A DNA stretch of 64,000 nucleotides from Stegostoma tigrinum. Its lineage: Eukaryota. The stretch spans positions 22,358,818 to 22,422,817 of the forward strand of contig NC_081384.1 in NCBI RefSeq assembly GCF_030684315.1. The letters run 5' to 3'. The translations under genes and the position numbers were made by a program. A model generated the notes under the pieces. It was not told the DNA's origin, searched no databases, and was given only the letters and a program-made list of their open reading frames with translations. This document shows, one piece after another, positions 1,674-50,995 of the stretch. The first letter of the stretch is position 1; every line of letters starts with the position of its first letter.

Positions 1674-3150
1674 GTTCCACTGATTGATAATGCCAGAGAA
1701 GTATCATACTTTGTAATACCAGACTTTATCAATAAAAAGAAACTTTTGCACTGAGATAGCTGTACTTGCCTTGAACTGTCCTATACTCTTCTTCAAGTGT
1801 GAAACATCTTTTTCTAACCACAGTCAGATCTTGTCTGTATTATCCTGAAACTTTAAATCTGAGCTTCCTAAGCTAAAATCAATCTTTTATTACTTTGAAG
1901 CAAAAACAAACTAATAGCTTTCAATATTTGCCTCACCGATTGTAAATCACCCAAGTATAAACAATTTCCTATTAATAGTCCAAGGTGTCCCTGCTCTCTG
2001 ACACATTCTGGATTAGGTCACCTTGCTAGAAGAACGGTCTAACCTAGCATTTTTTAAAAATCTTCAATAAACTAACCACTCAATATACCATTGCTTTAAA
2101 TTCTCAACTCTAAAAATGAAAGTGTATGTAACTTACATACCTTTCGCCACAGTTGTTAATCTTTCCGCTTTTGGAAAAAATGGTCAGGATCTTGCTTTTT
2201 GGTTGTGGCCCTGGGATACATGGGAAAACATGGTCTGCAACCCCACACTGTATAGAGAGCAGTCATCTGACTGTGAGCTTTCCCTGATTGGCCAATTGCC
2301 CAGAGATCATGTTCACTGTCCAATTAAAGATGGTGAATGGGGTCTAGAAGATGAGGGGCTAGTTGGGATTGCAGGGGGCTGCTGTAGGTAAAGGAGAAAG
2401 TGAGCACTTCTCTACTGCGCTATCCTCTCAGCAACTTTAACAAATATAATTAAAAACATTTATATGGGGCTAACTGAACCATGGTGGAGAAGTCAGGGGG
2501 TCACTTCACTTGGTAGCCTGTGACCATAGATGTAGCCAAGGAAGAAAGAAGGGTCTCAAAGCCATGCTGAAGCACTGTCACCTTCTGCCTATCACTGAGA
2601 GAACCCACAGGCAGCTGGCTTCTTCCCAGAACCATTATTGGATGTGGGAGAGTGACGGAGGTACTGTAGGCCCCTAAAATAAATAAGTCTGGAAATTGTT
2701 ATTAAACATACCCATTTTACTATCTGCCACTAACATTTGGATAACCCTTGTGTCTCCATGAAGTTGAATGCAGTGTGATAGAGCAAACTGGCATTCCAGC
2801 TGGTAGCTTGTAATTACTTGCCCGGTCCTTGGTAATCTACAATATGCTGTCCTGTGTCTCCTTACTTAAGCTATCATAGCTTTTGCCAATTATTGATAAT
2901 CTGTTCAACCTGTCCTTGACATTTGCTGCTTTAATGAGAAGAATCAGATCTTCTCTCTGCTCTCTACTTGATGGAAAAAGTAATTGAGACAAGTGCAAAA
3001 TTTGCAAGGTTACTTTAAATGTTTATCATTACCTAACTTTGGACAATACCAGAAAATGCTAACAAATATGCATTTCAACCATGCAAAATTAGAGCTGAAA
3101 CACATAACTAACTGCTGCACATTTATATTAAATGAGATATTTTAAGTGAC

Positions 3151-3617
3151 TGTGTAGGATGGGCTGAAGGGAAAAAATTATTGATGATATTTAACACCTG
3201 CATGACCTTGAATGATCCGTGTGAACATTACTGTATATGCCAAAGGTGGCATATACAAAGTTGCTTTTTTGTACTGATTTGTTTGTTACGCTGTATAAAA
3301 GGGAAAATTTTGTTCCAAGTCTTTAGACTTTAGCTTGGACTGGGATCATGGACCGTGCCAGGAACAACTTTAGCCTCCAGACCAGCCATCGCTTGATGGG
3401 TTCCCAATGGGCAGAAGGGCATGAGACTTATTGTTTTTTGTTTCCTTTCTTTTTCATTCTTTTTATTTATTTAAAACATGTTCCTTTCCTTTTTCATCTT
3501 TTATTAATACTTAATAAATGTTCATATTTCAGCAAATTGCTGTAGTTGAGCATTATCTTAACTACATTTAACTGAATCCAAAAAGAACTGCTTGGATACA
3601 TTCGGTGATCCAAGACA
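3151..3617 (+). repeat. 5' LTR
   Basis: TGTGTAGGATGGGCTGAAGGG...GATCCAAGACA, with TATAAAA at 3294-3300 and AATAAA at 3513-3518. Homologous to 8831-9290. Confidence 0.92.
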
Positions 3618-3622
3618 TTTTT

Positions 3623-3640
3623 TTGTCATTAGGATGGGAT
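3623..3640 (+). promoter_or_regulatory. Decayed primer-binding site, most similar to tRNA-Ser(GCU)
   Basis: TTGTCATTAGGATGGGAT versus TGGCGACGAGGATGGGAT (recalled Ser PBS): 13/18 match, last 10 identical. Lies a few nt after the 5' LTR. Confidence 0.55.
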
Positions 3641-3821
3641 TTGGGAACATGTGTAAGGGAAGGGAAAAGCAGCTTAATGCTTCGGAGACCTTCCGTATTC
3701 CAGGGCGGAGTGCAGCAGACTCTGGATTTGGTCTGTAGCTAATGTTAGCACAATTAGGACCCCTGAAAGGATGGGGAGCAGTTGTAACTAGAAAAAGAGA
3801 GAACGGGAGGCAAGATTTCTG

Positions 3822-4002
3822 CGATAATAGCAGGCCAAAGCACCATCAGAGGAGCAGGAAGGCTGATGTTTCGGGCCAAGGGGTCGAGGCCCGAAATGTC
3901 ATTCTTCCTGCTCCTCTGAATGTGTTCGGCCTGCTGTGTTCATCCAGCTATACACCTTGTTATCTTAGATTCTCCAGCATCTGCAGTTCCTATTATCTCT
4001 GG
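3822..4002. mobile_element. Miniature palindromic PLE insertion inside the ERV leader
   Basis: Inverted arms around ~3880, tail on the right arm only. 13-bp TSD GGCAAGATTTCTG at 3809-3821 and 4003-4015. Confidence 0.88.
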
Positions 4003-4524
4003 GGCAAGATTTCTGTGCTGTGCAAGTACACTGAACCTTGTGGAAGTGTTAATTCTTTGTGGTCTGGTTTGAATGCAATTTTGTTATTTGGTTGCTAAAT
4101 GTCATTCTGTACAGTTTATGTCTTTTTGTTGCCTGGAAGTTGAGATCTGGGGATAATTTGATGTTTTAGTTTGCATTTTGGGAATGTATGTTGATTTGAA
4201 AGTGTCTTTTGTACATGGTTAATGCAATGTCCTTTTAAGAAACAATCAGTGGTTGTGTAAAGCAAAATATCTATGAAAAGTTGATTTAAAAATTTGATTC
4301 ATAAAGCTTGAACAATTTATCTTTTGGAGTTGTTTCTGTTTTGTATTTGGAATGGGTATCTTTTAATTCCAGAAATTAACATATTTGGAGTTTTATTTTC
4401 TAGTCAGTGAACTTCCAAATACTATCAGAGATAATGGGAACTGCAGATGCTGGAGATTCCAAGATAATAAAATGTGAGGCTGGATGAACACAGCAGGCCA
4501 AGCAGCATCTCAGGAGCACAAAAG

Positions 4525-4556
4525 CTGACGTTTCGGGCCGAGACCCTTCATCAGAG
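4525..4556 (-). ncRNA. Minimal type I hammerhead ribozyme motif (PLE-associated), core intact
   Basis: The minus strand reads CU-CUGAUGA-A-GGGUC-UC-GGCCC-GAAA-CGUC-AG: both catalytic boxes, stem II, palindromic ACGU stem III and a GUC cleavage triplet. Confidence 0.75.
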
Positions 4557-4777
4557 AGGGGGATGGGGGGAGGGAACTGGAATAAATAGGGAGAGGGGGG
4601 AGGCGGACCGAAGATGGAGAGTAAAGAAGATAGGTGGAGAGAGTGTAGGTGGGGAGGTAGGGAGGGGATAGATCAGTCCAGGGAAGACGGACAGGTCAAG
4701 GAGGTGGGATGAGGTTAGTAGGTAGCTGGGGCTGCGGCTTGGGGTGGGAGGAAGGGATGGGTGAGAGGAAGAACCGG

Positions 4778-5164
4778 TTAGGGAGGCAGAGACAGGTTGG
4801 ACTGGTTTTGGGATGCATTGGGTGGGGGGGAAGAGCTGGGCTGGTTGTGTGGTGCAGTGGGGGGAGGGGATGAACTGGGCTGGTTTAGGGATGCAGTAGG
4901 GGAAGGGGAGATTTTGAAACTGGTGAAGTCCACATTGATGCCATATGGCTGCAGGGTTCCCAGGCGGAATATGAGTTGCTGTTCCTGCAACCTTCGGGTG
5001 GCATCATTGTGGCAGTGCAGGAGGCCCATGATGGACATGTCATCAAGAGAATGGGAGGGGGCGTGGAAATGGTTTGCGACTGGGAGGTGCAGTTGTTTGT
5101 TGCGAACTGAGCGGAGGTGTTCTGCAAAGCGGTCCCCAAGCCTCCGCTTGGTTTCCCCAATGTA
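4778..5164 (-). pseudogene. PLE GIY-YIG endonuclease C-terminal fragment (inverted arm)
   Basis: YIGETKRRLGDRFAEH...RRLQEQQLIFRLGTLQPYGIN, nearly identical to the plus arm. Confidence 0.9.
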
Positions 5165-5166
5165 TA

Positions 5167-6150
5167 GAATACACCTCCTCCCACCCACCCTCCTGCAAAA
5201 ATTCCATCCCCTATTCCCAATTCCTCCGCCTCCGCCGCCTCTACTCCCACGATAAGACATTCCACTCCCGCACATCCCAGATGTCCAAGTTCTTTAAGGA
5301 CCGCAACTTTCCCCCCACGGTGATCGAGAACGCCCTTGACCGCGTCTCCCGCATTTCCCGCGACACATCCCTCACACCCCGCCCCCGCCACAACCGCCCC
5401 AAGAGGATCCCCCTCGTTCTCACACACCACCCTACCAACCTCCGGATACAACGCATTATCCTCTGACACTTCCGCCATTTACAATCCGACCCCACCACCC
5501 AAGACATTTTTCCATCCCCTCCCCTGTCTGCTTTCCGGAGAGACCACTCTCTCCGTGACTCCCTTGTTCGCTCCACACTGCCCTCCAACCCCACCACACC
5601 CGGCACCTTCCCCTGCAACCGCAGGAAATGCTACACTTGTCCCCACACCTCCTCCCTCACCCCCATCCCAGGCCCCAAAATGACATTCCACATTAAGCAG
5701 AGGTTCACCTGCACATCTGCCAATGTGGTATACTGCATCCACTGTACCCGGTGCGGCTTCCTCTACATTGGGGAAACCAAGCGGAGGCTTGGGGACCGCT
5801 TTGCAGAACACCTCCGCTCAGTTCGCAACAAACAACTGCACCTCCCAGTCGCAAACCATTTCCACTCCCCCTCCCATTCTCTTGATGACATGTCCATCAT
5901 GGGCCTCCTGCACTGCCACAATGATGCCACCCGAAGGTTGCAGGAACAGCAACTCATATTCCGCCTGGGAACCCTGCAGCCATATGGCATCAATGTGGAT
6001 TTCACCAGTTTCAAAATCTCCCCTTCCCCCACTGCATCCCTAAACCAGCCCAGTTCATCCCCTCCCCCCACTGCACCACACAACCAGCCCAGCTCTTCCC
6101 CCCCACCCACTGCATCCCAAAACCAGTCCAACCTGTCTCTGCCTCCCTAA
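5167..6150 (+). pseudogene. PLE polyprotein 3' part: RT thumb, Cys-rich linker and GIY-YIG endonuclease (5'-truncated, one in-frame stop)
   Basis: SSHPPSCKNSIPYSQFLRLRR (PLE thumb), GTFPCNRRKCYTCP (Neptune-type linker), NVVYCIHCTRCGFLYIGETKRRL..RFAEH (GIY-YIG). In-frame TGA at 5464-5466. Confidence 0.92.
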
Positions 6151-6372
6151 CCGGTTCTTCCTCTCACCCATCCCTTCCTCCCACTCCAAGCCGCAGCCCC
6201 AGCTACCTACTAACCTCATCCCACCTCCTTGACCTGTCCGTCTTCCCTGGACTGACCTATCCCCTCCCTACCTCCCCACCTACACTCTCTCCACCTATCT
6301 TCTTTACTCTCCATCTTCGGTCCGCCTCCCCCTCTCTCCCTATTTATTCCAGTTCCCTCCCCCCATCCCCCT

Positions 6373-6404
6373 CTCTGATGAAGGGTCTAGGCCCAAAACG
6401 TCAG
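6373..6404 (+). ncRNA. Minimal hammerhead motif with GAAA mutated to AAAA (probably inactive)
   Basis: CTCTGATGAAGGGTCTAGGCCCAAAACGTCAG; differs from the left-arm copy at the conserved G, a CpG-type transition. Confidence 0.65.
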
Positions 6405-6777
6405 CTTTTGTGCTCCTGAGATGCTGCTTGGCCTGCTGTGTTCATCCAGCCTCACATTTTATTCTCTTGGAACTTCCAAATACTGTTTGAATACAATAGA
6501 ATCTTTGATTCCGGACAATAAGGTTGTCTCATTGTTAATATCCAAGTGATAGGGACATTGGAACGTTGAAAATGCAACTCCCTGAGTGCGAGGAGCTTAG
6601 GAAAGGCAAATTTAACAAAGAGGTGGGCTTTTCAGTTCTTTTAAGGAAGAGGAGAGACAGATGATGTAATTGCATGCAGGAGTTTACACCCTATGGTCTT
6701 TTTGAATCTGTGGTAGATTAATACTAATTAACCCATTCTCTTGACTTGGAGTGAATGGAATTTGTTCTTTATTTTAG

Positions 6778-8830: not shown

Positions 8831-9290
8831 TGTATAGGATGGGCTGAAGGGTTAAACCAACTGCATGACTTTGAATAGGTCCTATGAACATTCCTGTATG
8901 TGTCATAGATGGCATAATCAAATTTGCTTTTCTGTACTTTTTTTCTGTATTGGCTGTTCATTACACTGTGTAAGAGGGAGAATTTTGTTCCAAGTTGTCA
9001 GACATCCGCTCAGACTGGCATCACGAATGGTGTGAGGAAACAACCTTAGCCCCCAGATCAGCTGTCAATTGAGAGGTCCCCAATGGGCAGAAGGGCCTGA
9101 GGCTTACTGATTTTTCCCCCTCTTTTTCATTTTTTTTATTTACTTAACAAATTTTCCTTTCTTTATTCATCCTCCTTCATTACTCAATTAATGTTTGTAT
9201 TTAAGCAAGTTGCTATTGCCGAGCCTTCTCTTAACTACATTTAACCAAATCTGAAAAGAACCACTTAGATACACTCTGCGATCCAAGACA
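8831..9290 (+). repeat. 3' LTR
   Basis: TGTATAGGATGGGCTGAAGGG...GATCCAAGACA, preceded by a purine-rich GGGGCGGAT (8822-8830) and followed by the TSD GTGAC. Confidence 0.92.
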
Positions 9291-10119
9291 GTGACAAAAA
9301 ACAGCAACAGTCAAAATCCCTCGTGGGATTAAAAACAAACAGCAGCCACAAGAAGTGTTAAAGCGTGATGCAGCTCAGTTATGCTACAATATGATCCGTT
9401 GGTGTGATGTGGAACCACCATTGTCAAGGGCAACGAGATTCTAAAGTATGCCATCTGCACAATTTGAAGTGTAGCCTTGACAACGGTCTCTAAGCAAGCT
9501 ACATTCATTCTAAGAAAACACCAACTTTCACAATCTGGGGGCATAACAACAACATAAACAAAGAGAAGTTTGAAGCTTTTAGATCTCAGGCACATTGCAA
9601 AACAAGAACTGCTGAACAAAAAAAAACCACGGTTTGTGTCATTTACCTTCCAACATTTTGCTACTTACGTAAGAGTACAATAATAGGGTGCATTTTGTGA
9701 TGTCAGTAGCAGGGATGAATTTTAGCACCTGGATGCCAGAGGGGGCCTGCAACTTGTAGAATTGGACATGGGTGCCTTCGTGTGCTAATCCAAAAGTGCA
9801 GGAGATCAGCTGCATCAAAGGCAAATAAGAATCCAGTGCCAATTTGTGCTAATTGCCCGCTAATTCCATAGTAATAACACTTTAAACTTTTACATCATTA
9901 TTTTCAAATATTAGATGCCTCCTCTCAATTCACGACATATAATGAAAAGACTCAAGAAGTTAACATTGATCGCATTTTAAACATAGAAACTTTAAAAAGT
10001 TTGGCCAATCTTGTAAAATAAGAACTGATGAAGTATTAACATTTTGTATAAGACTTTCTAAGTGTTATTTTTTTAAAATGACTCCTGACCAAAATGCTGA
10101 AACAACACTTTTAAAACCC

Positions 10120-10515
10120 AAAATAAAAATGGCTGGAGAAACCCAACAGTTCTGGCTGCATCTGCGGAATGAAAGAAGAGATCATGTTTTGAGTCCAGTG
10201 ACCCTTCTTCTGAGCCAATAGTAGTTTGGGGTAAGTGATAAGCTAGATAAGGAGAAAAGCTGATAATGGGGATCACCTGTAGGTGAAAATGGCTTGGCTG
10301 TGCTGAAAGCGGCCCATGTTATGGCAGGGCCATCTATCGACTTACTCCTTTCTATCCCCACCCATGGTCTTCACCTTTTTATAACTACTAACACTTCTGA
10401 AGAGGGCTCATTGGAACTAAAACATTAACTCTGCTTTCTCTCCACACATGTAGTGACACCTGTTGACATTCTCCGGTAGGATTGTTTCTGTTTCAGATCT
10501 TCAGCATCTACTGTG
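10120..10515. mobile_element. Old PLE subfamily, inverted pair of 3' ends
   Basis: Minus arm (GCTGGAGAAACCCAACAG..GCATCTG..GAGTCCAGTGACCCTTCTTC) and plus arm (CTTCTGAAGAGGG..AAACATTAACTCTG..CAGCATC), both with decayed hammerhead cores. Confidence 0.65.
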
Positions 10516-10967
10516 TATCGATTCAATTTAATACCTTCTAAAATATGTTTGAATATTTTGAATCCTGTAAATTCAATTATGTCCTCTCCCATTATGGTTT
10601 TGTCATGCTGTTTTTTTTTGTAGTAGAAACCTCTGTGATTCAGTTTTTGTGGCTTATTGATTATAAGCCATGTCCACAACTAACTGCCATTTCCACTTGC
10701 ATGAGCCCGAATTACACAATAGGCTGGGAAGGAATCCTTGCTCAAGGCAGGTAAAATTCTCACCATGGAACTCAAGGCTATTTGTGATAAGGTGTATTTA
10801 GTGTCAATGGTGAGTGTTATCTGACTGCAGCCTATGTCCGCACTTGAGTTGTTGGCTATATATGGTGCTATGATCCGATTAGATCTGGTGCACTGATTAT
10901 TTTCTGAGATCCACTCTTTCACTGATCACAACTAAGTCTGAATTTAATCAGTGTTGTGGTATTGTTA

Positions 10968-11239
10968 TAAAAACAAAAACAAAAATTGCTGGAAAAACTC
11001 AACAGGTCTGGTAGCATCTGTGGAGAGAAATCAGAGTTAATGTTTCAGGTCTAGTGAACCTTCTTCATAATAGTTCTGAAATTCTGAACTCCAGTTCTAA
11101 GAAGGTCACTGGACCTGAAATGTTAAGCCTGATCTGTCTCCACAGATGCTGCCAGACTCGCTCCTTTTTACCAAATGTATCTGTTTTTTTTGTTTCTGAT
11201 TTCAGGCATCCACAGTTCTTTTAATTTTTTGTTTGGCGA
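10968..11239. mobile_element. Old miniature palindromic PLE
   Basis: Arms CAGGTCTGGTAGCATCTGTGGAGA and TCTCCACAGATGCTGCCAGAC. Flanking repeat TATTGTTA at 10960-10967 and 11240-11247. Confidence 0.75.
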
Positions 11240-11804
11240 TATTGTTAATCATGTGGGTGTCTGACTGAACTAAGTTTGGTATTACAAACAAATCTGCTTT
11301 TTTTTAAGGTAACAAATAGCAATTAGTTTATTACAAACAAAATTTACTCAAATGAACATGTAATTATTGTTAACAGGAAGGCTTAGATTGTGCAAATATG
11401 TGTATCAAAACCATATTATGAAAATAACTAGTCATAAAACTAACATTCAGAATTAACATGAGGTAAATATGTATAATAGACAAACCATGGTCATTACCCA
11501 TAGAACACATCAAATAGCAAGTGCTATCAAAATAGATATCATGGAGTTCTCAGCAATCCATGCACACACACCCATCCAGTTATTTGTGACAGTGTGGGTC
11601 ACCAAATCTCATTAAAGCTATTCAAGAAATTCTAATTCTTCCATTTTGAAGACTTAGCTATGGACTTCCCTTAAAAGCTGGCCCTTAAAGAGCTATGTCA
11701 ATGGCTGCTCATGATCAGATAGATCACTTTCCTCACCTGGACTACAGTTTGGATTCTGGAAGTAAAATTCAGTACCTGTCCATGGGCATGACCCCAGCTT
11801 TTCA

Positions 11805-13720
11805 TAGATAATGGAAACTGCAGATGCTGGAGAATCCAAGATAACAAAGTGTGGGGCTGGATGAACACAGCAGGTCAAGCAGCATCTTAGGAGCACAAAA
11901 GTTGATGTTTCAGGCCTAGACCCTTCATCAGAAAAGGGGGATTGGGAGAGGATTCTGAAATAAATAGGGAGAGAGGGGGAGGTGGACTGAAGATGGATAG
12001 AGGAGAAGATAGGTGGAGAGGAGAGTATGGGTGGGGAGGGAGGGAGGGGATAGGTCAGTCTGGGGAGGACAGACAGGTCAAGAGGAGGGATGAGGTTAGT
12101 AAGTAGGAAATGGAGGTGCGGCTTGAGGTGGGAGGAGGGGATAGGTAAGAGGAAGAACAGGTGAGGCAGATGGGGACGAGCTGGACTGGTTTTGGAATGC
12201 AGTGGAGGGAGGGGAGATTTTGAAGCTGGTGAAATCCACGTTGATACCGTTGGGCTGCAGGGTTCCCAATCGGAATATGAGCTGCTGTTCCTGCAACTTA
12301 TGGGTGGTATCATTATGGAACTGCAGGAGGCCCAGGATGGACATGTCGTCTAAGGAATGGGAGGGGGAGTTGAAGTGGTTCGCGACTGGGAGGTGCAGTT
12401 GTTTGCTGCGAACCGAGTGCAGATGTTCTGCAAAGCGGTCCAAAAGCCTCCGCTTGGTTTCTACAATGTAGACGAACCACACCGTGTGCAGCGGATGCAG
12501 TATACCACATTGGCGGATGTGCAGGTGAACATCTGCTTGATGTGCAATGTCATCTTGGGGCCTAGGATGGGGGTGAGGGAGGAGGTGTGGGGGCAGATGT
12601 AGCACTTCCTGCGGTTGCAGGGGAAGGTGCCGGGTGTGGTGGGGTTGGAGGGGAGTGTAGAGCGGACGAGGGAATCCCAGAGAGAGTGGTCTCTCCGGAA
12701 GGCAGACAAGGGTGGGGTTGGAAAAATGTCTTGGGTGGGGGGGTCGGATTGTAGATGGCAGAAGTGCTGGAGGATGATACATTGTATCCGGAGGTTGGTG
12801 GGGTGGTATGTGAGGACTAGAGGGATTCTCTTAGGGCGGTTCATTGTGAGAGTGGGGTGTGAGGGATGTGTTGTGGAAAATGCGGGAGACACGGCCGATG
12901 GCGTTCTCGACCACTGCAGGGGGAGGTTGCGGTCCTTGAAGAACGAGGACATCTGGGATGTGCAGCAGTGGAGTACCTCATCCTGGGAGCAGATGCAGCG
13001 GAGGCGAAGGAATTGGGAATAGGGGATGGAATTTTTGCAGGAAGGTGGGTGGGAGGAGGCGTATTCCAGGTAGCTGTGGGAGTTGGTGGGCTTGAAATGG
13101 ACATCAGTTTGTAAGTGGATGCCTGAGAGGGAGATAGAAAGGTCCAGGAAAGTGAGGGATGTGCTGGAGATGGTCCAGGTGAACCATTTCAACTCCCCCT
13201 TCCATTCCTTAGACGACATGTCCATCCTGGGCCTCCTGCAGTTCCATAATATGCCACCCGTAGGTTGCAGGAGCAGCAACTCATATTCCGCTTGAGAACC
13301 CTGCAGTCCAATGGAATCAATGTGGATTTCACCAGCTTTAAAATCCCCCCTCCCCCCACTGCATCCCAAAACCAGCCCAGCTTGTCCCCGCCTGCCTACC
13401 CTGTTCTTCCTCTCACCTATCCCCTCCTCCCACCTCAAATCACACCCCCATTTCTGACCTACTAACCTCATCCTGCCCCCTTGACCTGTCCGTCCTCCCC
13501 AGACTGACCTATCCCCTCTCTACCTCCCCACCCATACTCTCCTCTCCACCTACCTTCTCCTCTATCCATCTTCAGCCCGCCTCCCCCCTCTCACTATTTA
13601 TATCAGAACCCTCTCCCAATCCCTCTTTTCTGATGAAGGGTCTAGGCCTGAAATTTCAACTTTTGTGCTCCGAAGATGCTGCTTGACCTGCTGTGTTCAT
13701 CCAGCCCCACACTTTGTTAT
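11805..13720. mobile_element. Second head-to-head PLE (minus arm 11805-13183 with tail, plus arm 13181-13720 without tail); related subfamily, more diverged
   Basis: About 540 bp of inverted repeat, GAA microhomology at the junction, 12-bp TSD CCCAGCTTTTCA at 11793-11804 and 13721-13732. Hammerhead-like cores at ~11902-11933 (-) and ~13628-13660 (+). Confidence 0.93.
12096..13183 (-). pseudogene. PLE RT C-terminus, linker and GIY-YIG (frameshifted)
   Basis: FTWTISSTSLTFLDL..QTDVHFKPTNSHSYLEYASSHPPSCKNSIPYSQFLRL (RT end and thumb), CNRRKCYICP, NVVYCIRCTRC, YIVETKRRL. Confidence 0.9.
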
Positions 13721-16700
13721 CCCAGCTTTTCACAGTCAGTTACATTCACCAAGCTAGTATTGCTCTGAGATTTCTTTGAGCCTTAATCTTACTCAGATAC
13801 ACCAGGCAAATACTGCTTGTGTACTAGTTTCAAATTTACTCCTTACTCTACTGGGCTATTAATTGATCACAGGCTTCCTTCAAACTCTAAATGGCGCACA
13901 GGACCTCTCCCAATTTTTAGTTGAATAGAGCGAATAAACAGTTCTGGGACTTCCTCCTGAGTCCCAACTACACTGGATTAGTGGTCTTCAAATTTTTTCT
14001 CAGCAGCTCGGATTAAGTGTACGTTTCCTCCAGAAAGTTTCCTCCCGGTATATCCTCTTTATCACTGTCAACATGTGTCTGAATTCAATGGTTTTGGATG
14101 GTCTATGGAAAAATATTGCAACAATACCTGCCCCTGTGGCTAGGCAAAATTAAATATAATTATTATTGGAATCACAGATTCACTGAATGTTACAAGTTTC
14201 CAGATTGCCTGTTTATTCTGTTTGAATGGCTGCTGGAGAAAACAAAAATGATTTTCATCACAATTGAATTTTTTTCCATCCATTAGTTTACAACTGATAC
14301 ATACACAATAATGCAAGGAAAACCTCAGATGTGGACAACTTTTGGTTCTTTAATTTCAATGTCTCCCAACCTCCTCATATTTATTAATTTATGTTCATTT
14401 CTCCGTCCATAAAAAGCAGAGATCCAAATTGAAAAATGCCTTTGAAAATGGTGTTATTAAATAAAAGTAATTTTCTTGTAGCTACATATTGTAACCACTG
14501 TGTGAAAACTATTGCGTTGTAATAGTTCAATAGGGAGATCTCCACTTTCTTCACAGATTATCTGGAGGTGGACACTAGCCAATATTGCCCACAGCCATGG
14601 AACAAGTGTTCTTTTTTAACAGTTGTTTCAAGAAGATAGCTTGTTTCTTTTTTCACAGCAGACCAAAACAATTTACAAGACTGCTTTAAATATCCAGTCA
14701 ATGTGTCTTGTGAAGACACTTATTCTAATTATTGTTGGCCATGACGTAAATGATACTTATATTCAGAACATATATGTATATTTTTAACTTATTTCTTTTC
14801 ACGTTGTGCACCCTGTAATCATCTGAGTTACATCTGGTGCCACCATGCTGATTCAGGTCTCAGCTTTGCATTTCTGAGTATATTCAGTATATGACATCAT
14901 CGATCTTTTGATGTGCTTTCTTAAAGATAAAATTATGCAGATTATACCAATACGTTTTTGCAAAGTGATAACTACGTAGTCAACAGGAATCCGTCTTATA
15001 ATAGATTTTGTGCCTTTGTTCTTAAAAGTTAGATGAAATGTCAGAATAAAACCCATTTTTTTTCAAAATTTAACACAGTTTTAACAGCAATCCCAAAATG
15101 TATTACATTGATATGTAAAGTACTTGCTTCCAGACTGAAAGGTGAAAAATGGTGTTACAGCTGATGAGGTTTTCTTGTCTTGTTTTCAATTGGAACAGGT
15201 ACAATTTACTGTGGAATTAAGATGCATAAATCTGTCTTTGAGTCATGCAGATGTGAAGTTTCTCAAAGCATTCTTTTTGAAGTAAAATAGTTAGCATGTA
15301 GGCATCCCTTGCTGCTTCTCCAAAAATTTGACAGTTCTCACAATAAACATAACATCAAAAAAAAGGGAACATTATATGTTCACAGTCTGCATTGCTAAAC
15401 TTCATTTTAAGCCAAGTTAAGACTTTTCCCCTGATACACTATGTGTCAAATCATCCTTGTTGTCTGTGTCATAGTCAATGTGGATAGTGTAAATAAAATG
15501 TGACCCTGGCATCTAATCCTCTTCGTCTAACTATAGCATTGTGCTGCAGCAGCAGGCACTCTCTAAGCATCCATTAAGGGCTCCAGTGTTTCAGTCTAAA
15601 AACATGTCTCTGCCACAAAGGCCCCTCCTCCTGGTTTTTCTTATTGCATGAATTCTTGGGACTTTTTCCATTTCCAGAAAGCTGGAGGATAGCCTAAAGT
15701 GCGACCCAGATGTTTATGTCTAGGTCATACAGGGCAACAGGAAAAAGGCAAAAAATAGGGCAAGGAATTCAGGAGGTCATTTCTTGTACAGAAAATAGAA
15801 TGACAACAACAACAAAAATCACCCGTGACCTACCCTGACACAAGAGAAATTTTACAGGCGTCTGCTGCTGTACAGCTGAGACAAAAATCCAAACAGGTGC
15901 AACTTAAGAAACAAGGCTGGTGGGAAAGGTTCTGTAAGGCAACTTGGTAAGAAAAACAAGCAGAGGCTGTGAGGACAGAGCAGTAATGGTAACTACATCC
16001 CTACCTAGTAAATAGAGTTTGCTATTTCTGTCTGGCCAGTTAAGAGGGCACTGAATTGAGGGACCTTTGTCTGGGTGGCGCATTCCACAAAATGACCATA
16101 TGTCACCTAACTACATGTTTTTCTTCCACTTTCACAATTACAGTTTTCTCTTATTGCAGATGGCAGCTATCCCCAATTTCCAGGGAAGATTAATGTCACA
16201 GGTGGCGTGCCAAGTGCACGTGTGTAGAGTACAAAAGACTTCAGTATATCTTGATTATTTTTTTAAAGTGGAGTGATTTTACATTTAATTGTGTTCAGAA
16301 TCTACAATAACCTAGGCGAAAAAAGATTCTTATGAAGAAACTTGTAGATTTGGTCTGCAACAGAAACTGCATTAAGGTAAAGGGGAGCTATCTTCCGGAC
16401 AGACAGCCAGCTGCAGATCCGAGAAATTTTAAAAATTCAGTTTTAACAGCTGCATGTTGTCTGACAGAATATCCAGGCATAGTGACTCAGTGGGCACTGC
16501 ATGGTAAATGGTTCAGCATTCTGATGGGGAACCCCTTTCCTCACATATGTTTGAAGGATGTTGATGCATAACTAATACTTATTAGTCAAATATAATAATG
16601 TTGTAGGCACGAAGATGAAGAGAAATCTAAGATACACAGATTAACATAAACTTTGTGAAATTTTATTTAACAATAGAATAGGATGGGGAGAAACAAAACC

Positions 16701-18730: not shown

Positions 18731-19623
18731 CCTTAGGCATAAATGCAGGAACACTTTGAAGTAGTGACCAATGATTTACAAACAGCATGAAAATGCTTTG
18801 TAAATCAGTACAAACCCAAGAATTGTCTTTTTTAAATTGTCCTGTTAATACTTAAAACCTTGCAACAGCACTGTTGCAATTGTTCTGTGCTTAATTTGAA
18901 GATTTTCTTAAGCAACAATTCATAATTTATGTAAATACATAAAAACTATTTAGCATTAAGAGCTCAACATTGTAAAGAAAATGAGTGAATGCACTATAGC
19001 TATGCACAAAATGAGATGTGTAAAACAGTAGAATATTCTCTTAGTCTCTAAAGCACTTACACTCCAATAACAATGTTTTTTCCATTTTCACCAAGACCAC
19101 AGCATGTAGCATGATTGAGTCTATAATCACAATTATTCATAAATGGACAAGTACTCCAGGCAGTTATATTGTTTTCTGCAATATCTTTGGTTGGAAGTTG
19201 TGTTATCTGTGCCATGGACAACGCTTAGAATGGTCTCCTATGGAAAGGTTTCCTTATTCTGACTTCTTCCAATGTATGCTAAAAATTGTTTTATCAAATA
19301 ATAGTCCTATTCCATGTCAAGCTAAATCTGGTTTATTGAAGGGAAACAAATTTCAATGTTAAAAGTGAATTGAAAATGTGAAATTGAAATAAAGAAGGTA
19401 AGAACAGGCAAGGTTACTGACACAAAATTAAATTTGCACACAACAGCACTCATTGGAGCAATTTGTAATTGCCAGTACTCAGTTTGGGAAATATCTGCAT
19501 ATAAATTTCAGATTCAAAGTCCATCAGCCTTACATATGAATTATTGGGAGTCAGAGGGTTTAATTAAAAAGAAATGCTGATCATAATCTCACCACTCAAC
19601 CATGCCAGAGAGTTGAACTAATG

Positions 19624-19838
19624 CACAAAAACAGAAGTTGCGTAAAAAGCTCAGCAAGCCTGGTAACATCTGAGAAGAAAAAATCAGAGTTAACTTCTGC
19701 AATTCTGAGGAAGAGTCAACGGATCCGAAATGTTAACTCTGAGTTTTTCTTCACAGATACTGTGAGACCTGCTGAGCTTTTCCGGCCACTTCTGTTTTTG
19801 TTCCTGATTTACAGTAAGTGCAGTTCTTTCTGTTTTAT
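19624..19838. mobile_element. Old miniature palindromic PLE with a hammerhead-like core
   Basis: Arms CAAAAACAGAAGT..AAAAGCTCAGCA and TGCTGAGCTTTT..ACTTCTGTTTTTG. CTGAGGA..GAAA at 19705-19730. TSD TTGAAC(T/C)AATG at 19613-19623 and 19839-19849. Confidence 0.8.
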
Positions 19839-19905
19839 TTGAACCAATGATGCTGGCCAACAATTCAGTGCAGTACTGAAGGAGTGCTGGGCTGCTAGTT
19901 ATATC

Positions 19906-20999
19906 AGGCTGAATTTAGTGTTAGCAACAGGGGCCCCAGCAGGTAGTTGGAGAACTACTGGGGACCCTGCATCATTTCTCTCTCAGACGCTTGACATTAT
20001 TAGGTAAGAAGACACTTATCTGGACAACACCATGACTCCCATGTAATTAGGTAATTTCTAGTGAAATGGAGGTGCTGCCCACAAGATCTTCAGCCAGTCA
20101 TAAGTTGGTGGTTCTGTCGTGTAGGGAGGAATGATGGCTGCTGCTAGAATTACATTTATGTCTAACTTGGGGATGACTACAGAATTGCCAGTTAAATGTG
20201 AGTGAGAATGAAATTGGAATCACAAGTATAGGGTAGTCAATGCAGTTGAATGCTGGTGATTCATAAATCAGATACATGAGGAGCATGGAATGGTTTTAAT
20301 CAGGGCCCTCCATTCTCTCCACTGGGTCCTCAGATTGGCACACAGTACCTGTGAATAAGGGATCTCCTTTAAAGAAAGCTGCAGACAAACTCTACAGAAT
20401 TTGTTGTGTGATCTCTCCACATATCCCTACACATCTAGGGTGGCATGGTGGCTCAGTGGTTAGCATTACTGCCTCACAGTGCCAGAGACCCAGCTTCAAT
20501 TCCACCCATGGTTGACAGTCTGTATGGAGTTTACACATTCTCCCAGTGTCTGTGTGGGTTTCTTCTCGGTGCTCTGGTTTTCTCCCACAGTCCAAAGATG
20601 TGCAGGTTAGGTGGATTGGCCATGCTAAATTGCCTGTAGTGTTCAGGGATGTGTAGCTTAGGCGGTTTAGAGGGGGTTGGATCTGGGTGGGATGCTCTGA
20701 GGGTTGGTGTGGATGTGTTGGGCTGAAGGGGCTGTTTCCACACTGTAGGGACTCTATGATCCTCAGTCTCCTGTATGCTGCTCGGTGAGTAACAGCTGCT
20801 GCAGAATTCCCTGACTATTTAAGGCCTTTACTGGTGTCCGGGCAGTAGGATGCTCCCTACCTTCACGAGCTGGAGACCAATTGAAGTCGGGGTGAGGTAG
20901 GATTATAAAATTGCAGGTCTCCAAATCTTCTACCTCCATGCCCAACCAAACAATCTCACTCTCTTCCAAACTTGTTTCTGTATGCTTTAAATTCTGCCC
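19906..20999. mobile_element. Possible old non-autonomous DNA transposon (Harbinger-like MITE) hosting an HE1 SINE
   Basis: Imperfect terminal inverted repeats AGGCTGAATTTA (19906-19917) and TAAATTCTGCCC (20988-20999), 10/12 match. Confidence 0.35.
20438..20760 (+). mobile_element. HE1-type tRNA-derived SINE (V-SINE family)
   Basis: A box TGGCTCAGTGG, B-box-like GCTTCAATTCC, central CCCACAGTCCAAAGATGTGCAGGTTAGG and a CR1-like tail. Confidence 0.9.
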
Positions 21000-24079: not shown

Positions 24080-24152
24080 ATGTCAGCTTTTGTGCTCCTA
24101 AGATGCTGCTTGGCCTGCTGTGTTCATCCAGCCCCACACTTTGTTAGCTTGG
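24080..24152 (+). mobile_element. PLE 3'-end fragment without tail
   Basis: GTCAGCTTTTGTGCTCCTAAGATGCTGCTTGGCCTGCTGTGTTCATCCAGCCCCACACTTTGTTA. Confidence 0.85.
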
Positions 24153-28074: not shown

Positions 28075-28355
28075 GCTAACGTCACCCTCCTATCCAGATC
28101 ATTATCAACTCCTTTGCCTATCAAACTGTTCTTCTTTCTCTTTGGGCTCTATCCTTTATCCTATCATTTACTCCATACCATATCCCCTTCCATCTTTTCT
28201 GCATATAAACCAACATTTTCCTAGCTCCCATCACCAGACCCATAACATTAACTCTGACTTTTTCTTCACAGGTGCTGTCAGACTTATTGAGCTTTTCCCG
28301 AAACTTCTGTTTTTGTTTCAGATTTACAGCATCCACATTTCTTTTGGTTTTTATT
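28075..28355 (+). mobile_element. Old PLE 3' end
   Basis: Pyrimidine-rich UTR, then AACATTAACTCTGAC..CACAGGTGCTGTCAGAC..GAGCTTTTCC..TTTCAGATTTACAGCATC. Confidence 0.65.
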
Positions 28356-29250: not shown

Positions 29251-30174
29251 GCTTAAGGGTGGCCAGCAAGTGAAATATATTTCTAGTAGGCTAGTAGCTG
29301 TTCATTTTTGGGTAATATGTGACATGTGATACATGACATCTTGCTGGATTGCTCAGTCTGCCTCGGCAAAAGGATATTTTGCAGCTTTATCTAATTCATT
29401 GCCAAGAAAGTTGCAATCTTAACTGGAAAGCGTCAGTCAGAATCTGTGCCAAATGGTTTTTGTTCCTCTCTTCCCATGGTTGCCTTGTGCAGCCTATCAT
29501 GAGGGTGTCTCCAGTACAGAAGAGGAAACTGTTTATGGAGGACAGAAAGTAATCCTTAAGCATTGTTGAGGTGTTTTTCTTGGAGAGTAAAAGACTGACA
29601 GGATCAAGGGAAGTAATTTTCATTTAAGGCAACTCACTCTCCCACCTGAGGTCTATGTGAAGGGAAAGTGATTAAATAGGAAACATTACAAAAAGCCTTT
29701 AGAAATACAGGTTCCCTGATCTGTACGTTCTCGAGAGTTAAAAAAAAACATCATTTTTGACAGATGTCTTTTGATAGAAACCATGTGCAACCTTTGGAAG
29801 TTTCTGAAGTCTCTGAGCACTCAAAGGATTATTTAAGGAGGTAAAAGATCGTAGTGAGGATTTCTGGTAACGTAAAGCAACACTTGCTAACAGGAATTAG
29901 ACTAATGATTAGGATTTCACTGGTATGTATGACAAATAATAAAATAATTGAGGGTAATTTCAAAATTGTATACATGATGAATAAAAAGGCTTACTTAAAG
30001 ATGAATAGAACATTTGTGGAAGTAATATTTTTCTATCGACATATGGGATTAAAATTATGATATTTCTTTGCTTTTTTTGAGCCATTATATTTTTTGCTGA
30101 ACTCATTCATAACAAACAGAAATCACTTCTGCTTTCACTTAGACATAGAGCACCAATAGAAGATGGCTAATTTT

Positions 30175-30470
30175 TTTTCTTTCATTCATTTGTGGGATGT
30201 GGGCAGCGTTGGCTGGCTAACATGTAGTTCCCCTCTTTTGTTGCCCTTGAGAAGGTGAGCTGCATTCTTGAACCGCTGCAGCCATGTGCTGTGCACTGAC
30301 CCACGATGCCGTTAGAGGGGTCATTCCAAGATTTTGACCCAGCAACAGTGAAGGAATGGTGATGGATTTCCAAGTTACAATGGTGAGTAGCTTTGAGGAG
30401 AACTTGCAGGTGGCGGTGTTCCCATGTACTTGCTGCACTTGTACTTCTAGGTGGAGGTAGTTGTGGACCC
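30175..30470 (-). mobile_element. 3' end of the tRNA-headed LINE family (see 43351-46925)
   Basis: TTCATTCATTTGTGGGATGTGG...CTTGAACCGCTGCAG, the reverse complement of 46690-46922. Confidence 0.8.
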
Positions 30471-43350: not shown

Positions 43351-46300
43351 GGGCAATAGCCTCATGGCATTATCGGTAGACTATTAATCCAGAAGCCCAG
43401 CTGATGTTCTGGGATCAGGGAAATCCCACCATGGCAGATGGGGGAATTTGAATTCAAAATTTTTTTTTAAATGTCTGGAATTAAAAATCAACTGATCACC
43501 ATGAAATCATTGCCAATTGTTGGAAAAAAACATCAGGTTCGCTATGGTCCTTCAGGGGAGGAAATCTGCCACCCTCACCTGGCAAAGCCGACACGATACT
43601 CCAAACACACAGCAAATGTGGTTGACTCTCAATTGTCCTCTGAAATGGCCGAGAGAACCACTCAGTTGTACCAACCGCAACAAAGTCTCAGAGAAACGAA
43701 ACTGGGCAGATCACCGGGCATTGACCTAGGCACCGGAAAAGACAACGGCAGAAGCAGCCCTGTCAACCATGCAAATTCTCCCTCACTAACATCTGAGGGT
43801 TACTGCCAAATTGGGACCGCTGTCTGACAGACTGGTTAAGCAACATCCTGACGTACTCATACTCATAGAATCATACCTTGCGGGCAACATCCCTGACACC
43901 ATCATTACCATCCCAGGATATGTCCTGTCCCACAGGCAGGACAAACCCAACAATGTTGGCAACACAGTGGTATACAGTCGGGAGGGTGTTGCTCTAGGAT
44001 TCCTCAACATTGACTCCAGGCCCCATGAAAATAAAGTTAAATGAGGGCAAAGAAACCTCCTGCTGATTATGACATTCTGTCCTCCCTCAGCTGATGAATT
44101 AGTACTCCTCAATGTTGAACAACACGTAGAGGAAGCGCTTGTCATAGCAAGGGCACAAAGTGTACTCTGGGTGGGGGATTTCAAAGCCCACCACCCAGAG
44201 TGGCTCAGCAGCAGTACTACTGATCGAGCTGGTCGGGCCCTATCGGGCATAGCTGCTAGACTGGGTCTCTGGGAGGGGGTGAGGGAACCAACATTAGGGA
44301 AAAAAAACATACTTCAACTTATCCTTATCAATCTGCCAGCTGCGGTTGTACCTGTCCTTGACAATATTGGTAAGTGTGGCCATCTCCACAAGGACTGTGC
44401 AATGAAGTCCTGCCTTCACATTGAGAATAACCTCCATCATGTTGTGTTGCACAATCACTGTGCTAAATGGGACAGACTTTGCACTGATCTAGCAACTCAA
44501 GACTGGACATCCATGAGGTGCTGTGGGCCATCAACAGCAGCAGAATTGTACTCCAGCGCACTCTGTAACCTCATGGCCCGGCATATCCCCCACTCAACCT
44601 TTACCATCAGGCCAGGGGATCAACTCTGGTTCAATGGACAGTTCGGGAGGGGAAGATTGGAGCAGCAACAGGCATACTTGAAGATGAGGTATCAACCAGA
44701 TGAAGCCACCAAACAGGAATACTTGCATGCCAAACGGGGAAAGCAGCAAGTGATAGAAAGAGCTGAGCAATCCCACAACCAACAGATCAGATCTAAGCTC
44801 TGCAGACCTGCCACATCCAGTTGTAAATGGTGGTGGACAATTAAACAACTCACTGGAGGACGAGGCTCCACAAATATCCACATCCTCAATGATGGAAGAG
44901 CCCAGCACAACAGTGCAAAAGCTAAGGCTGAAGCATTTGCAGCAATCTTCAGCCAGAAGTGCTGAGTGGATGAGCCATCTCATTCTCCTTCAGTGGTCCC
45001 CAGCATCACAGATACCAGGCTTCAGCCAATTCGATCACTCCACATGATACCGAGAAATGGTTGGAGACACTGGATACTGCAAAGGCTATGGGCCCTGACA
45101 TTATTCGGGCAAGAGAACTGAAGACTTGTGTTCTAGAACTTAGTCAAGCTGTTCCAGTGTAGGTACAACTCTGGTATCTACTGGCAATGTAGAAAATTCC
45201 GCGAGTGTGTCCTGTACACAAAAGGCAGGACAAAATCAACCCAGCCAATTAATGCTCCATCCGTCTACTCTCAATCTTCAGTAAAGTGATGGAAGGTGTC
45301 ATCAACAGTGTTATCAAGCAGCATCTGCTGAGCAATAACCTGCCCAGAGACACCAATTTTGGAATCCGCCAGGGTCACTCAGCTCCTGACCTCATTACAG
45401 CCTTGGTTCAAACAAGGACACAAGAGCTGAATTCCAGAGGTGAGGCGAGAGTGACAACCTTTGACATCAAGTTTGCATTCGACCGAGTGTGGCACCAAGG
45501 AGCCCTAGCAAAACTGGAATCAATGATTATCGGGGCAAACGGTCTGGTGGTTGGAGTCATACCTGACAAGCAGGAAGATGCTCATGGTTCATAGAATTAT
45601 AAAACCCTACAGTATGGAAACAGGCCCTTTGGCCCAACAAGTCCACACCGAGCCTTGGAACATCCCACCCAGACTCATCCCCTTGTAGCCCACCTAAGCT
45701 ACACATGCCTGAATACTAAGGGAAATTTAGCCTGGCCAATCCACCTAACCTGCACATCTTTGGACTGTGGGAGGAACCTGGAGCACCCAGAGGAAACCCA
45801 CGCAGACCCGGGGACAATGTGCAAACTCCACACAGACAGTTGCCTGAGGGTGAAATTGAACCTGGGTCACTTGCACTGTGTGGCAGCAGTGCTAACCACT
45901 GAGCCACTGTGCAGCCCCGAATGGTTGTTGGAGGTCAATCATCTCAGCCCAGGATATCTCTGCAGGAGTTCCCCAGGGTAATGTCCTCAGCCCAACCAGT
46001 TTCAGCTGCTTCATCAATGACCTTTCCTCCATCATAAGGTCAGAAGTAGGGATGTTTGCTGATGATTGCATAATGTTCAACTATTCATTACTCCTTAGAT
46101 ACTGAAGCAGCCCGTGTTCATATGCAACAAGATTTGGACAATATCCGGCTTGGGCTGACAAGTGGCAAGTGACATTCATGCCACACAAATGCCAGGCTAT
46201 GACCATCACCAATTACAGACATTCTAACCACCATCCCTGGACACTCAATGGTGTTACCATCACTGTATCCCCCACTATCAACATCTTGGGTGTTATCATT

Positions 46301-46925
46301 GACTGGCAACTCAACTGGAGCAACCACATAACACAGTGATTACAAGAGCAGGCCTGAAGCTAAGAATACTGCAGTGAGTAACTCACCTCCTGACTCCTCA
46401 AATTATGTCCACCATCTACAAGGCACAAGTCAGGAGTGTGATGGAATATTCCCCACTTGCCTGGATGAGTGCAGGCCCAACAACAATCAAGAGGCTCCAC
46501 ACATCCAGCACAATGTAGCCTGCTTAATTTGCATTGCTTCCACAAACATCTACTCCCTCTACTACATACACTCAACCACAGCAGCGTATACAATCTACAA
46601 GATGAACTGCAGAAATTCACCAAAGATCCTGAGACAGCACCTTCCAAACCCATGACCACTTCCATCAGAAGGACAAGGGCAGCATACATATGAGAACGCC
46701 ACTGCTTCCAAGTTCCCTTTCAAGACACTCATCATTCTGACTTGGAAACATACGCCATTCCTTCACTGGGTCAAAATCCTGAAATTCCCTGCCCAATAAC
46801 ATTGTGAGTCAACCTACAGCAGGTGGACTGCAGCGGTTCAAGAAGGCAGCTCACAAACACTTTCTCTCGGGATGGGCAAGAAATACTGGCCAGTCAGCAA
46901 CGACCACATCCCATAAATGAATAGA
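43351..46925 (+). mobile_element. Near full-length non-LTR retrotransposon (CR1-group, APE plus RT) with a tRNA-like 5' head
   Basis: APE motifs PDVLILIES and VLWVGDFKAHH. RT motifs FGIRQGHS, FDIKFAFDRVWH, GVPQG and FADD (46055-46066). 3' end CCACATCCCATAAATGAAT. Multiple stops and frameshifts. Confidence 0.92.
45590..45918 (-). mobile_element. HE1-type SINE nested in the LINE RT region
   Basis: Reverse complement of 20438-20760, flanked by ATGGTT at 45584-45589 and 45921-45926. Confidence 0.9.
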
Positions 46926-47093
46926 GAAAAAAAAACCCACTGAACTAATACCCAGTAAGGGTCTATAAGATTGAAGTGCTGATATGAGGAGTTCCCTCTG
47001 TGCCAACAGAGACGGTTTCAAATGAATTTGGTTTCAGTTACTCTATATACCTTTTTGAGCACATGATTCTCTCATATACAAATAATTAGAAAT

Positions 47094-47190
47094 TTCTGAA
47101 GAAGAGTCTAGACCCGAAACATCATCTTTCCTGCTCCTCTGATGCTGCTTGGCCTGCTGCGTTCATCCAGCTCTACACCTTGTTGTCTCA
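47094..47190 (+). mobile_element. PLE 3'-end fragment starting at a hammerhead-like core
   Basis: CTGAAGAAGAGTCTAGACCCGAAACATC (47096-47123), then CCTGCTCCTCTGATGCTGCTTGGCCTGCTG. Confidence 0.8.
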
Positions 47191-48940: not shown

Positions 48941-50094
48941 AACATCAAAAGGCAGCAATAACGTACTAATTCATGACCACATTAGAAACTAATTCAAATG
49001 CCATATTCGCTAAGTTCCCTCCGAAATTAGCTTTTGAGGAAGATGGGTAATTTTACAATGTAAGCACTTGAAAGTTTATAAACTACATTTAATCAAGTAA
49101 TTCATCCAGTTTTCCCATCTTGCAACAACAGCAAATTCAAAACTTTCTTGGGATTGTGTTTTCTTTTATTTTGGCTTAAATAAATTCCTATTCTGGCTGA
49201 ACTTTGTGTAATTTGTGAGCTATTGACTAACATTTTTCAAGGAAAAGAGAAAGCACAAGGGACATTAACAGTCACTGGAAATCAAAGTTTTTCAATCACT
49301 CTGTATACCTAAGTAGAGACTTTCTGCCGCACGGTTGAAATTTGCATGCACAGCCTGTGATTTTTGGTCCATTAGAATTAATGGCTGGAACATGAATGGA
49401 AATCAGCAGTTGAATTGTGCAGTTTTTCATCCTGCATTCATGTGTGACAACAGTGATGAAACAAAAAAATTCCCTGTTTTCATACACTACTTGTTTAAAA
49501 TTAATGGAGCCTATATCATCCATTATAATAGAATCTCCAAGTTTTAGTCTTGCCGATACAATAGAACAAAATCCTCAACCTGGATTGAAGACAAGCACAG
49601 TACAGCTCCAATTTGATTCACCCTGGAGATGAATAGAATATAAAGAACAAAGGAAGCTTCGCAATGTGGAGCCCCAACAAGGCTTTATAACATGCTAATT
49701 TTTTCAGTTGATAGGACTGTGGATTCTGAATTTCCACAATACAGTAGAAATAAGAATTGCTGTTTGGAATGAATGCTTTCAAGCTCTGGATACACCCTCT
49801 CATGGAATTGAGTCTAATTAATGTAAGACCTTATCTACAGATTCTCTGGAGTAACAGCACTAAGAAGGCCAACATTTATTGCCAATCATTATCCTGTGCA
49901 AGCTTGAACAGTTCCACTGTTTTACTGATTCATTCAAATACCAAGAAAACATTTTCAAATATATTGTGACTGAAATGGCTATTATCAATGCAAAAGAGAA
50001 CAATAACTGTATAAAACTACAACGTTTTTCTTTCATTGATTTAAAACTATTCATCTTATATTGTGGTAAACTGCACTGCAGCAATGCACCAATG

Positions 50095-50395
50095 GTCCTT
50101 CAATAACACCTTCTAAAGCCACAAATACGACCAGCAAGAAGAACAAGAAGGACAAACACAAGGGAATATCAGCAGATGCAAGTTTCCCTTCAAGTCATAT
50201 GCTATCTTGACTTGGAAACATTTTGCCATTCCTTCACTGTTACGGGACAAAATTCCTGAAATTCTCTCCCTACTTCACTGTGGAATATCTGCTGCAGGTG
50301 ACTGCAATGGTTCAAGAGGTGATTCAAGAGTAATTAAGGGTGGGCATCACATGCTGGTCTTGCCAGCAAAGCTCACATCCAAAGAATGAATTAAA
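50095..50395 (+). mobile_element. 3' fragment of the tRNA-headed LINE family
   Basis: TGACTTGGAAACA..GCCATTCCTTCACTG...CACATCCAAAGAATGAAT. Confidence 0.7.
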
Positions 50396-50783
50396 AAGAG
50401 AACTGTTGCCTCAGTAATTATTTGAGTACATAAACTGTGATTACTTCACAAACTTAATCGTTCAATCAATTCAGTGGCCAGGAGTGCCACAGCAGCAATG
50501 TTTACCTCCACATGTAGAGGGTAAAGGAAACAATACAAATTCAATAAAACTGCCATTCACTGACATTAAAAAAGGGAGCATTTCCTACATAGTAATCTCA
50601 CCTTGAAACAGAAATAACTCCTATAGGGAGACTTCCTTCACTCATGCAGTTTGCAAATCAATTGATTCCTTTGAGCACAGTCTCCCAGATATTCACTGCT
50701 CCTTATATGCTGGTATTGCCTTTTTCCATCAACTTGAGGTGGACAAAACTGATGCGGAAATGAGCATCCAAAGTCTTTTCAAA

Positions 50784-50995
50784 ATAACAAAGTGTGGGGC
50801 TGGGTGAACACAGCAGGCCAAGCAGCATCTTAGGAGCACAAAAGCTGACGTTTTGGGCCTAGACCCTTCATCAGAAAAGGGTCTAGGCCCGAAATGTCAA
50901 CTTTTGTGTTCCTAAGATGCTGCTTGGCCTGCTGTGTTCATTCAGCTCCACACTTTGTTATCTCGGATTCTCCAGCATCTGCAGTTCCCATTATC
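50784..50995. mobile_element. Young miniature palindromic PLE (about 210 bp)
   Basis: About 85-bp near-perfect inverted arms meet at the hammerhead region, with the tail on the right arm. 10-bp TSD TCTTTTCAAA at 50774-50783 and 50996-51005. Confidence 0.92.

Follow-up and report, generated by a model that had tools for sequence, protein, structure and literature searches.

The insertion at positions 4409 to 6484 of a 64,000-nucleotide stretch of the Stegostoma tigrinum genome (hereafter the window, whose numbering is used throughout) is probably an ordinary and fairly young product of retrotransposition by a Neptune-type, endonuclease-bearing (EN+) Penelope-like element (PLE), and we place at roughly one in two the probability that it arose by coordinated priming at both ends of one target cut. 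The structure as such is known and unsurprising to a PLE specialist: its layout, that is, an inverted copy, a target duplication and a one-sided tail, has already been published (PMC3846280, PMC8557442), and the origin of the inverted copies is named as open in the second of these papers. What this locus offers is a tail on the shorter arm, a feature that distinguishes two-ended priming from fold-back.

The insertion is enclosed by a single target site duplication (TSD), GAACTTCCAAATACT, an exact 15-bp repeat found at 4409 to 4423 and at 6470 to 6484 and occurring just twice across the 64-kb window; as a control for chance, none of 20,000 pairs of random 39-nt stretches had 14 nt or more in common. 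The right copy starts with GAA, which is also the next sequence of the element, and the TSD measures either 15 bp or, if these 3 nt are counted as microhomology, 12 bp; in all, the element matches seven of the first nine target bases at this side. Between the two repeats lie a minus-strand arm of 741 nt (4424 to 5164), which includes a tail of 33 nt (4424 to 4456), and a plus-strand arm of 1305 nt (5165 to 6469), which stops before that tail. Both are 5'-truncated copies of the same element, fused head to head at 5164/5165, a position that is set by the loose ends of family contigs. An earlier note on this DNA had described this arrangement, with arms of about 740 bp and 1.3 kb inside one 15-bp TSD, and its description holds throughout, except that the tail, given there as about 35 nt and correctly assigned to the minus arm only, is refined to 33 nt.

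The short arm begins within the endonuclease, at its YIG part, and continues across the 3' UTR/pLTR into the tail, and the long arm carries 599 nt of extra 5' sequence of its own (5165 to 5763), covering the RT thumb region and a CX4CxxC linker, with an in-frame stop at 5464 to 5466. An open frame follows on the plus strand (5467 to 6150), which takes in the linker, a CCHH motif and the GIY-YIG endonuclease. When the window was compared with itself by BLAST, 696 of 705 aligned positions of the arms were identical (98.7%), with one gap. The nine differing sites comprise five transitions and four transversions, a CpG transition being present at one of them only; considered as evidence on the template, this spectrum is uninformative and does not demonstrate that the RNA was shared. 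Three 39-nt tandem copies at the end of the ORF are present in both arms (6019 to 6135 and 4781 to 4909); they are absent from an older copy at 11793 to 13732.

Judged from its predicted protein, the element is an EN+ PLE, as the earlier note had held. Specifically, the plus arm encodes an RT-thumb region, the linker and a GIY-YIG endonuclease, the RT core having been truncated away at the focal locus. The endonuclease signature consists of VVYCIHCTRCGFLYIG and a His pair downstream, with two Cys between GIY and YIG (CCHH), and the match to PF01541 (E 5e-4) reaches 20.7 bits, below the curated cut-off of 22.6. Full-length proteins that combine RT and GIY-YIG match at 45-48%, the C-terminus of one of them (P0006) being 48% identical over 176 aa, and in P0006 and P0025 PF00078 and PF01541 lie within one ORF. 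The YIDD core is present in a closer relative, P0001, at 94% identity. Longer relatives number 31 among 770 candidates; the best relatives are annotated proteins of two carpet sharks, at 94% in Stegostoma tigrinum and 93% in Rhincodon typus, and the other shark and ray relatives among the top ten stand at 54-65%. In addition, the linker joining RT to EN, CNRRKCYTC, has the form CX4CxxC. Since linkers of the form CX2-5CxxC are common to Neptune and Nematis and absent from Penelope/Poseidon (PMC8557442), the focal linker points to Neptune or Nematis and excludes Penelope/Poseidon; the linker, taken together with the vertebrate host, makes the element a putative Neptune type. Metagenome, prokaryote-genome and viral contigs contained no match to a 22-nt pLTR motif.

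Upstream of the tail lies a hammerhead-like core (CTGATGA-A-stem II-GAAACGTC; 4527 to 4554, minus strand), whose helix I, drawn by eye, is of 2 bp only and which, again compared by eye, fits the description of minimal PLE hammerheads in PMC4209133. A second such core is present in the long arm (6375 to 6402, plus strand), with its GAAA motif substituted at 6395. Rfam gave two matches at E<=1, neither of them to a hammerhead; both are miRNA matches at 3843 to 3924 and were rejected, as they are far under the gathering scores and reflect the palindrome there.

Two fixed family-wide 3' end sites, as had been proposed, are shown by the contigs of same-species sequencing runs. In both of the runs that were compared (X10 and X11), loose ends with long T-rich flanks pile up at the tail-less and at the tail end of a 3.9-kb copy, the two pile-ups being 36 nt apart; their numbers are at least 1333 versus at least 1286 in X10 and at least 1329 versus at least 1309 in X11, a near 1:1 ratio that is also expected from an independent 50:50 choice. 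In family A, to which the focal insertion belongs, both ends come after a TTATC motif that is repeated 33 nt apart. A small hairpin in the tail was considered as a signal and rejected, because it is not significant (z from -1.8 to +0.6 in six copies). A tail core, CAGCATC..CAGTT, is common to family A and to a second family, B, the rest having diverged, which suggests a conserved recognition signal.

The genome of Stegostoma tigrinum is dense in loci of this kind. BLAST, an inverted-repeat scan and profile searches identified, in the 64-kb window, eight head-to-head pairs and four solo pieces of two related pLTR families, and the head-to-head layout is therefore routine in the window and not special to the focal locus. 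An exact TSD is present at four of the eight pairs, all of family A: the focal one (15 nt), 3809 to 4015 (13 nt), 11793 to 13732 (12 nt) and 50774 to 51005 (10 nt). The fifth family A pair, at about 725 to 867, has no convincing TSD, and the three pairs of family B have imperfect ones, each with one mismatch: 11 nt at 19613 to 19849, 10 nt at 10958 to 11247, and a weak 9 nt at about 10110 to 10535. As for the solo pieces, those of family A (24080 to 24152 and 47093 to 47190) are tail-less with no recognisable TSD, and those of family B (28228 to 28355 and 60425 to 60567) have the tail and no convincing TSD. Family B, with its three pairs and two solos, has its own hammerhead-like core and its own tail. 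A weak match to a further hammerhead-like pLTR, possibly of a third family, lies on the minus strand at 52540 to 52640 and was left out of these counts. The window also holds a decayed LINE at 44045 to 45591 (PF14529, E 1.5e-5, below the cut-off; RT PF00078, E 1.6e-9) and, by self-BLAST, further interspersed repeats of about 230-440 nt (20448 to 20750, 45605 to 46239, 61120 to 61433, 30171 to 30461, 46603 to 46934, 50072 to 50317, 3195 to 3617, 8858 to 9290 and 62300 to 63267).

Exactly one tail is present in seven of the eight pairs. The eighth, 3809 to 4015, is ambiguous: its left arm has no tail sequence, but its terminal 8 nt resemble the tail-end site more closely than they do the tail-less one, and this arm may also have started at the tail site and then suffered a deletion. 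The tail is not bound to one arm length. In the older pair at 11793 to 13732 it lies on the long minus arm, which measures about 1.38 kb and reaches into the end of the RT core, the plus arm being tail-less and 540 nt long, whereas at the focal locus and at 50774 to 51005 (there by 13 nt) the tail arm is the one that reaches less far 5'. Identity between the arms within a locus (98.7% at the focal pair, 91.3% at the older one) is higher than identity between these two long loci (87.6-87.9%), and old pairs with the same layout have arms that differ by 8-15%. The junctions of the five family A pairs are all different, with overlaps, counted by eye, of 0 nt at the focal locus, 2-3 nt at 13181, about 2 nt at 3880 and 5 nt at 50877. 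Three miniature pairs of 140-230 nt (50774 to 51005, 3809 to 4015 and about 725 to 867) are centred on the hammerhead-like motif's self-complementary stem II. Where the arms of these miniature pairs can be aligned, the copy extends 5' of the predicted cleavage site, so that their template was probably uncleaved RNA.

At the centre of the focal insertion, family contigs that pass 5164 continue with GAGG, and those that arrive at 5165 do so with ..CAGCTACC. The join is blunt against the family majority and shows an offset TAGA match (TG-TA/TAGA-AT) and no clean microhomology. The comparison with contigs took in four of the 16 sequencing runs listed, three raw-read runs being bisulfite libraries that did not enter it, and covered the stretch from 2200 to 5755, the right junction lying beyond it. 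The listing shows a minority of 2665 joints, 7470 loose ends and 407,124 pieces, so that an absence from it carries no weight; among the matches listed for this stretch no contig bridges 5164/5165. At the left junction, a contig of X11 spans 4226 to 4443 with no differences, thereby covering the flank, the TSD and 20 nt of the tail, which is under the 31-nt standard for bridging. An apparent contig joint between 5164 and 5753 on opposite strands reflects only the family's own unbroken sequence and was not accepted as evidence for the junction; joints between the tail end and the tail-less end connect neighbouring insertions and were not used as evidence. With regard to an empty site, self-BLAST of the window gave no paralogue of either focal flank, and six-frame translation gave no interrupted ORF in the flanks. 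A candidate empty site for the 3809 to 4015 pair is hinted at by a 444-nt contig (X1, X2), which aligns with 4003 to 4189 and breaks off at base 1 of that pair's right TSD; its flank is moderately repeated and the candidate was not counted.

Where TPRT generates a TSD, two 3' overhangs are implied, with the duplicated sequence on each, and if both overhangs are extended on RNA, two outward-facing 3' ends are expected inside one TSD. In the coordinated pathway that we favour, the endonuclease would make a staggered cut that leaves two 3' overhangs of 12-15 nt, and one RNA-protein complex, plausibly containing a protein dimer, would serve both of them. One overhang would be primed at the upstream start site, where a match of 3-7 nt between target and RNA would help, to give the tail-less arm; the other would be primed at the downstream site, 33 nt away, to give the arm with the tail. 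On this single RNA the trailing RT would displace the leading cDNA, with the result that the same 3' region would be present in both arms. Both cDNAs would then stop early, be joined 3' end to 3' end, at joins that across the loci show 0-5 nt of microhomology, and be filled in. In other words, the process would amount to twin priming with a near-complete internal duplication, and it predicts one TSD, two outward 3' ends and one tail, which may lie on the longer or on the shorter arm. Two syntheses are favoured because each arm has sequence that is missing from the other, namely the tail on one side and 599 nt on the other.

Biochemical support for this pathway comes from another PLE, whose protein nicks and extends both target strands in vitro and is predicted to dimerise (PMC11167929), and copying past an internal primer has a precedent in L1 (10.1101/2024.08.27.596794). 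Also in its favour are the seven one-tailed pairs, the exact TSDs at four pairs, the two end sites in near-equal numbers and the greater likeness of arms within a locus than between the two long loci. Several observations weigh on the other side. The sample is of eight pairs from one window, one of them ambiguous and four without an exact TSD; the displacement needed is of about 700 nt, to be set against a median duplication of 22 bp in L1; the in vitro study, in which two internal RT starts bound the tail, saw no strand difference in the start site (PMC11167929); the focal junction lacks clean microhomology, and the differences between the arms show no shared RNA. Among the matches listed there is, moreover, neither an empty site nor a contig across the central junction. 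A central deletion in a once-symmetric palindrome could also mimic the asymmetry of the arms.

A published hypothesis (PMC3846280, PMC8557442) offers a one-ended route, in which TPRT takes place at one end and snap-back or self-priming comes after it. The first cDNA, or in PMC3846280 an antisense template, would fold over and serve as the source of the second arm, and the tail would be trimmed at one end when the endonuclease resolves the intermediate, as suggested in PMC8557442. A single tail arises naturally in this way, and the route fits both the 11793 to 13732 pair, whose long arm bears the tail, and the short pairs centred at the self-complementary stem II. A second arm that copies part of the first, however, leads one to expect the tail on the longer arm, whereas in the focal insertion 599 nt of the long arm are missing from the arm with the tail, and the tail is missing from the long arm. 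Each arm being incomplete, neither could have been copied from its partner, unless the centre was deleted later or the first-primed end was trimmed; the 50774 to 51005 pair leans in the same direction, more weakly, and on balance we consider the fold-back rather unlikely. Extension of both 3' ends was also the reading of the earlier note, which had, however, assumed two independent TPRT events. This part of its proposal, taken literally as involving two RNAs, one for each overhang, and a separate choice of start site, would give the same geometry as the coordinated model with no need for long strand displacement; the nine arm differences are not CpG-rich, and the 3809 to 4015 pair may contain two tail-site starts. 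Extension of both ends fits the single TSD and the arm-specific sequences and is retained. Independence fares less well: tails distributed at random over no, one or both arms are not what the window shows, as seven or more one-tailed pairs out of eight have a probability of about 0.035 under a 50:50 choice, and in the literature, too, the tail is usually at one end only (PMC8557442). The excess of one-tailed pairs points to coordination, and independent events appear improbable.

More improbable still is a pre-existing palindromic master locus that was read through by transcription and copied in a single pass, or the insertion of a second copy at the 5' end of a first. PLE composite units are indeed mobilised inside one TSD (PMC3846280), but the five family A pairs of the window differ in their junctions, which speaks against a common master, no second TSD marks a serial insertion, and a copy made in a single pass would have no cause to end, on its far side, at a fixed RT start site. 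Finally, palindromes are hard to assemble (PMC8557442) and no contig among the matches listed bridges the central junction, as would suit an artefact of assembly or of library fold-back. We hold such an artefact to be very unlikely, in view of the exact 15-bp TSD, the unlike and unique flanks, the asymmetric arms with nine differing sites and one gap, the recurrence of the layout in old pairs whose arms have diverged by 8-15%, and the partial cover of the left junction by the X11 contig.

If the coordinated model is true, it ties PLE integration to L1 twin priming and is relevant to the use of PLE proteins for two-ended insertion. A broader proposal can be put forward only tentatively, and we think it more probably wrong than right: the inverted pLTRs of PLEs would be the normal product of programmed twin priming, with a dimer, one RNA, two start sites 33 nt apart and displacement over hundreds of bases. 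In that case the one-sided PLE tail would correspond to the poly(A) that an L1 inversion has on one side, and the genomes of carpet sharks, rich in TSD-flanked pairs, would be a ready data set. A two-ended priming model for PLEs was not found in a full-text literature search, whose thin coverage of older subscription papers leaves room for one there; the papers listed that speak of twin priming mention Penelope once each, and the available text of PMC9977147, PMC10191854 and 10.64898/2026.07.22.740005 contains nothing on PLE inversion.

The typical PLE is described as having an adjacent inverted pLTR, a 9-10-bp TSD round the entire insert and an optional 31-bp tail on one of the inverted pLTRs, and its structure has been ascribed to self-priming on an antisense template (PMC3846280). 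The same layout is reported in PMC8557442, where the tail is attributed to endonuclease resolution and the formation of tandem and inverted structures is named as unexplained; PMC2377424 and PMC8969392 agree on it. With the inverted-pLTR insertions of EN+ PLEs, namely Pen2a_Av and its scaffold-304 derivative (PMC3846280), those of the legend to Fig. 2 of PMC8557442 and Penelope of D. virilis (PMC2377424), the focal insertion shares an inverted, 5'-truncated copy at the 5' end, one TSD round the unit and a tail of 30-40 nt at one end only. Unlike them, it has a 5' truncation in each of its copies, lacks an RT core and a direct pLTR, has a TSD of 12-15 bp rather than 9-10 bp, and carries the tail on the shorter arm. 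Poseidon_Ac (PAc) of Anolis, studied in vitro (PMC11167929), likewise has two 3' end sites round the tail, AT-rich flanks and a hammerhead-like motif upstream of the tail. However, PAc belongs to the Penelope/Poseidon clade, whereas the focal element has the CX4CxxC linker, and in place of the AC-rich stem-loop of PAc the context of the focal start sites is a TTATC repeat. In its available text PMC11167929 gives no model for inverted copies, and the later steps of integration are described there as unvalidated.

The closest functional parallel is L1 twin priming, in which one RNA is copied from both nicks and the cDNAs are joined by microcomplementarity (10.1101/2024.08.27.596794). There, as in the present case, one TSD surrounds an inverted 5' part and the 3' terminus is on one arm; both nicks prime and the cDNA made first is able to run past the site of the second primer (10.1101/2024.08.27.596794), as would be so here too. 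The earlier note had drawn a contrast with L1, in which the inverted part was held not to duplicate the 3' end; this was overstated, since the L1 tail is also one-armed and 283 of 1703 inverted L1 insertions have internal duplications (10.1101/2024.08.27.596794). The differences lie elsewhere. The second primer site of L1 is a chance internal one and that of the focal element is fixed, 33 nt from the first; L1 duplications are short (median 22 bp), compared with about 700 nt duplicated here; and L1 employs an APE endonuclease and a poly(A) tail, whereas the focal element has a GIY-YIG endonuclease and no poly(A). On this analysis, the focal insertion would resemble twin priming in the way it works, but it is not an L1 product.
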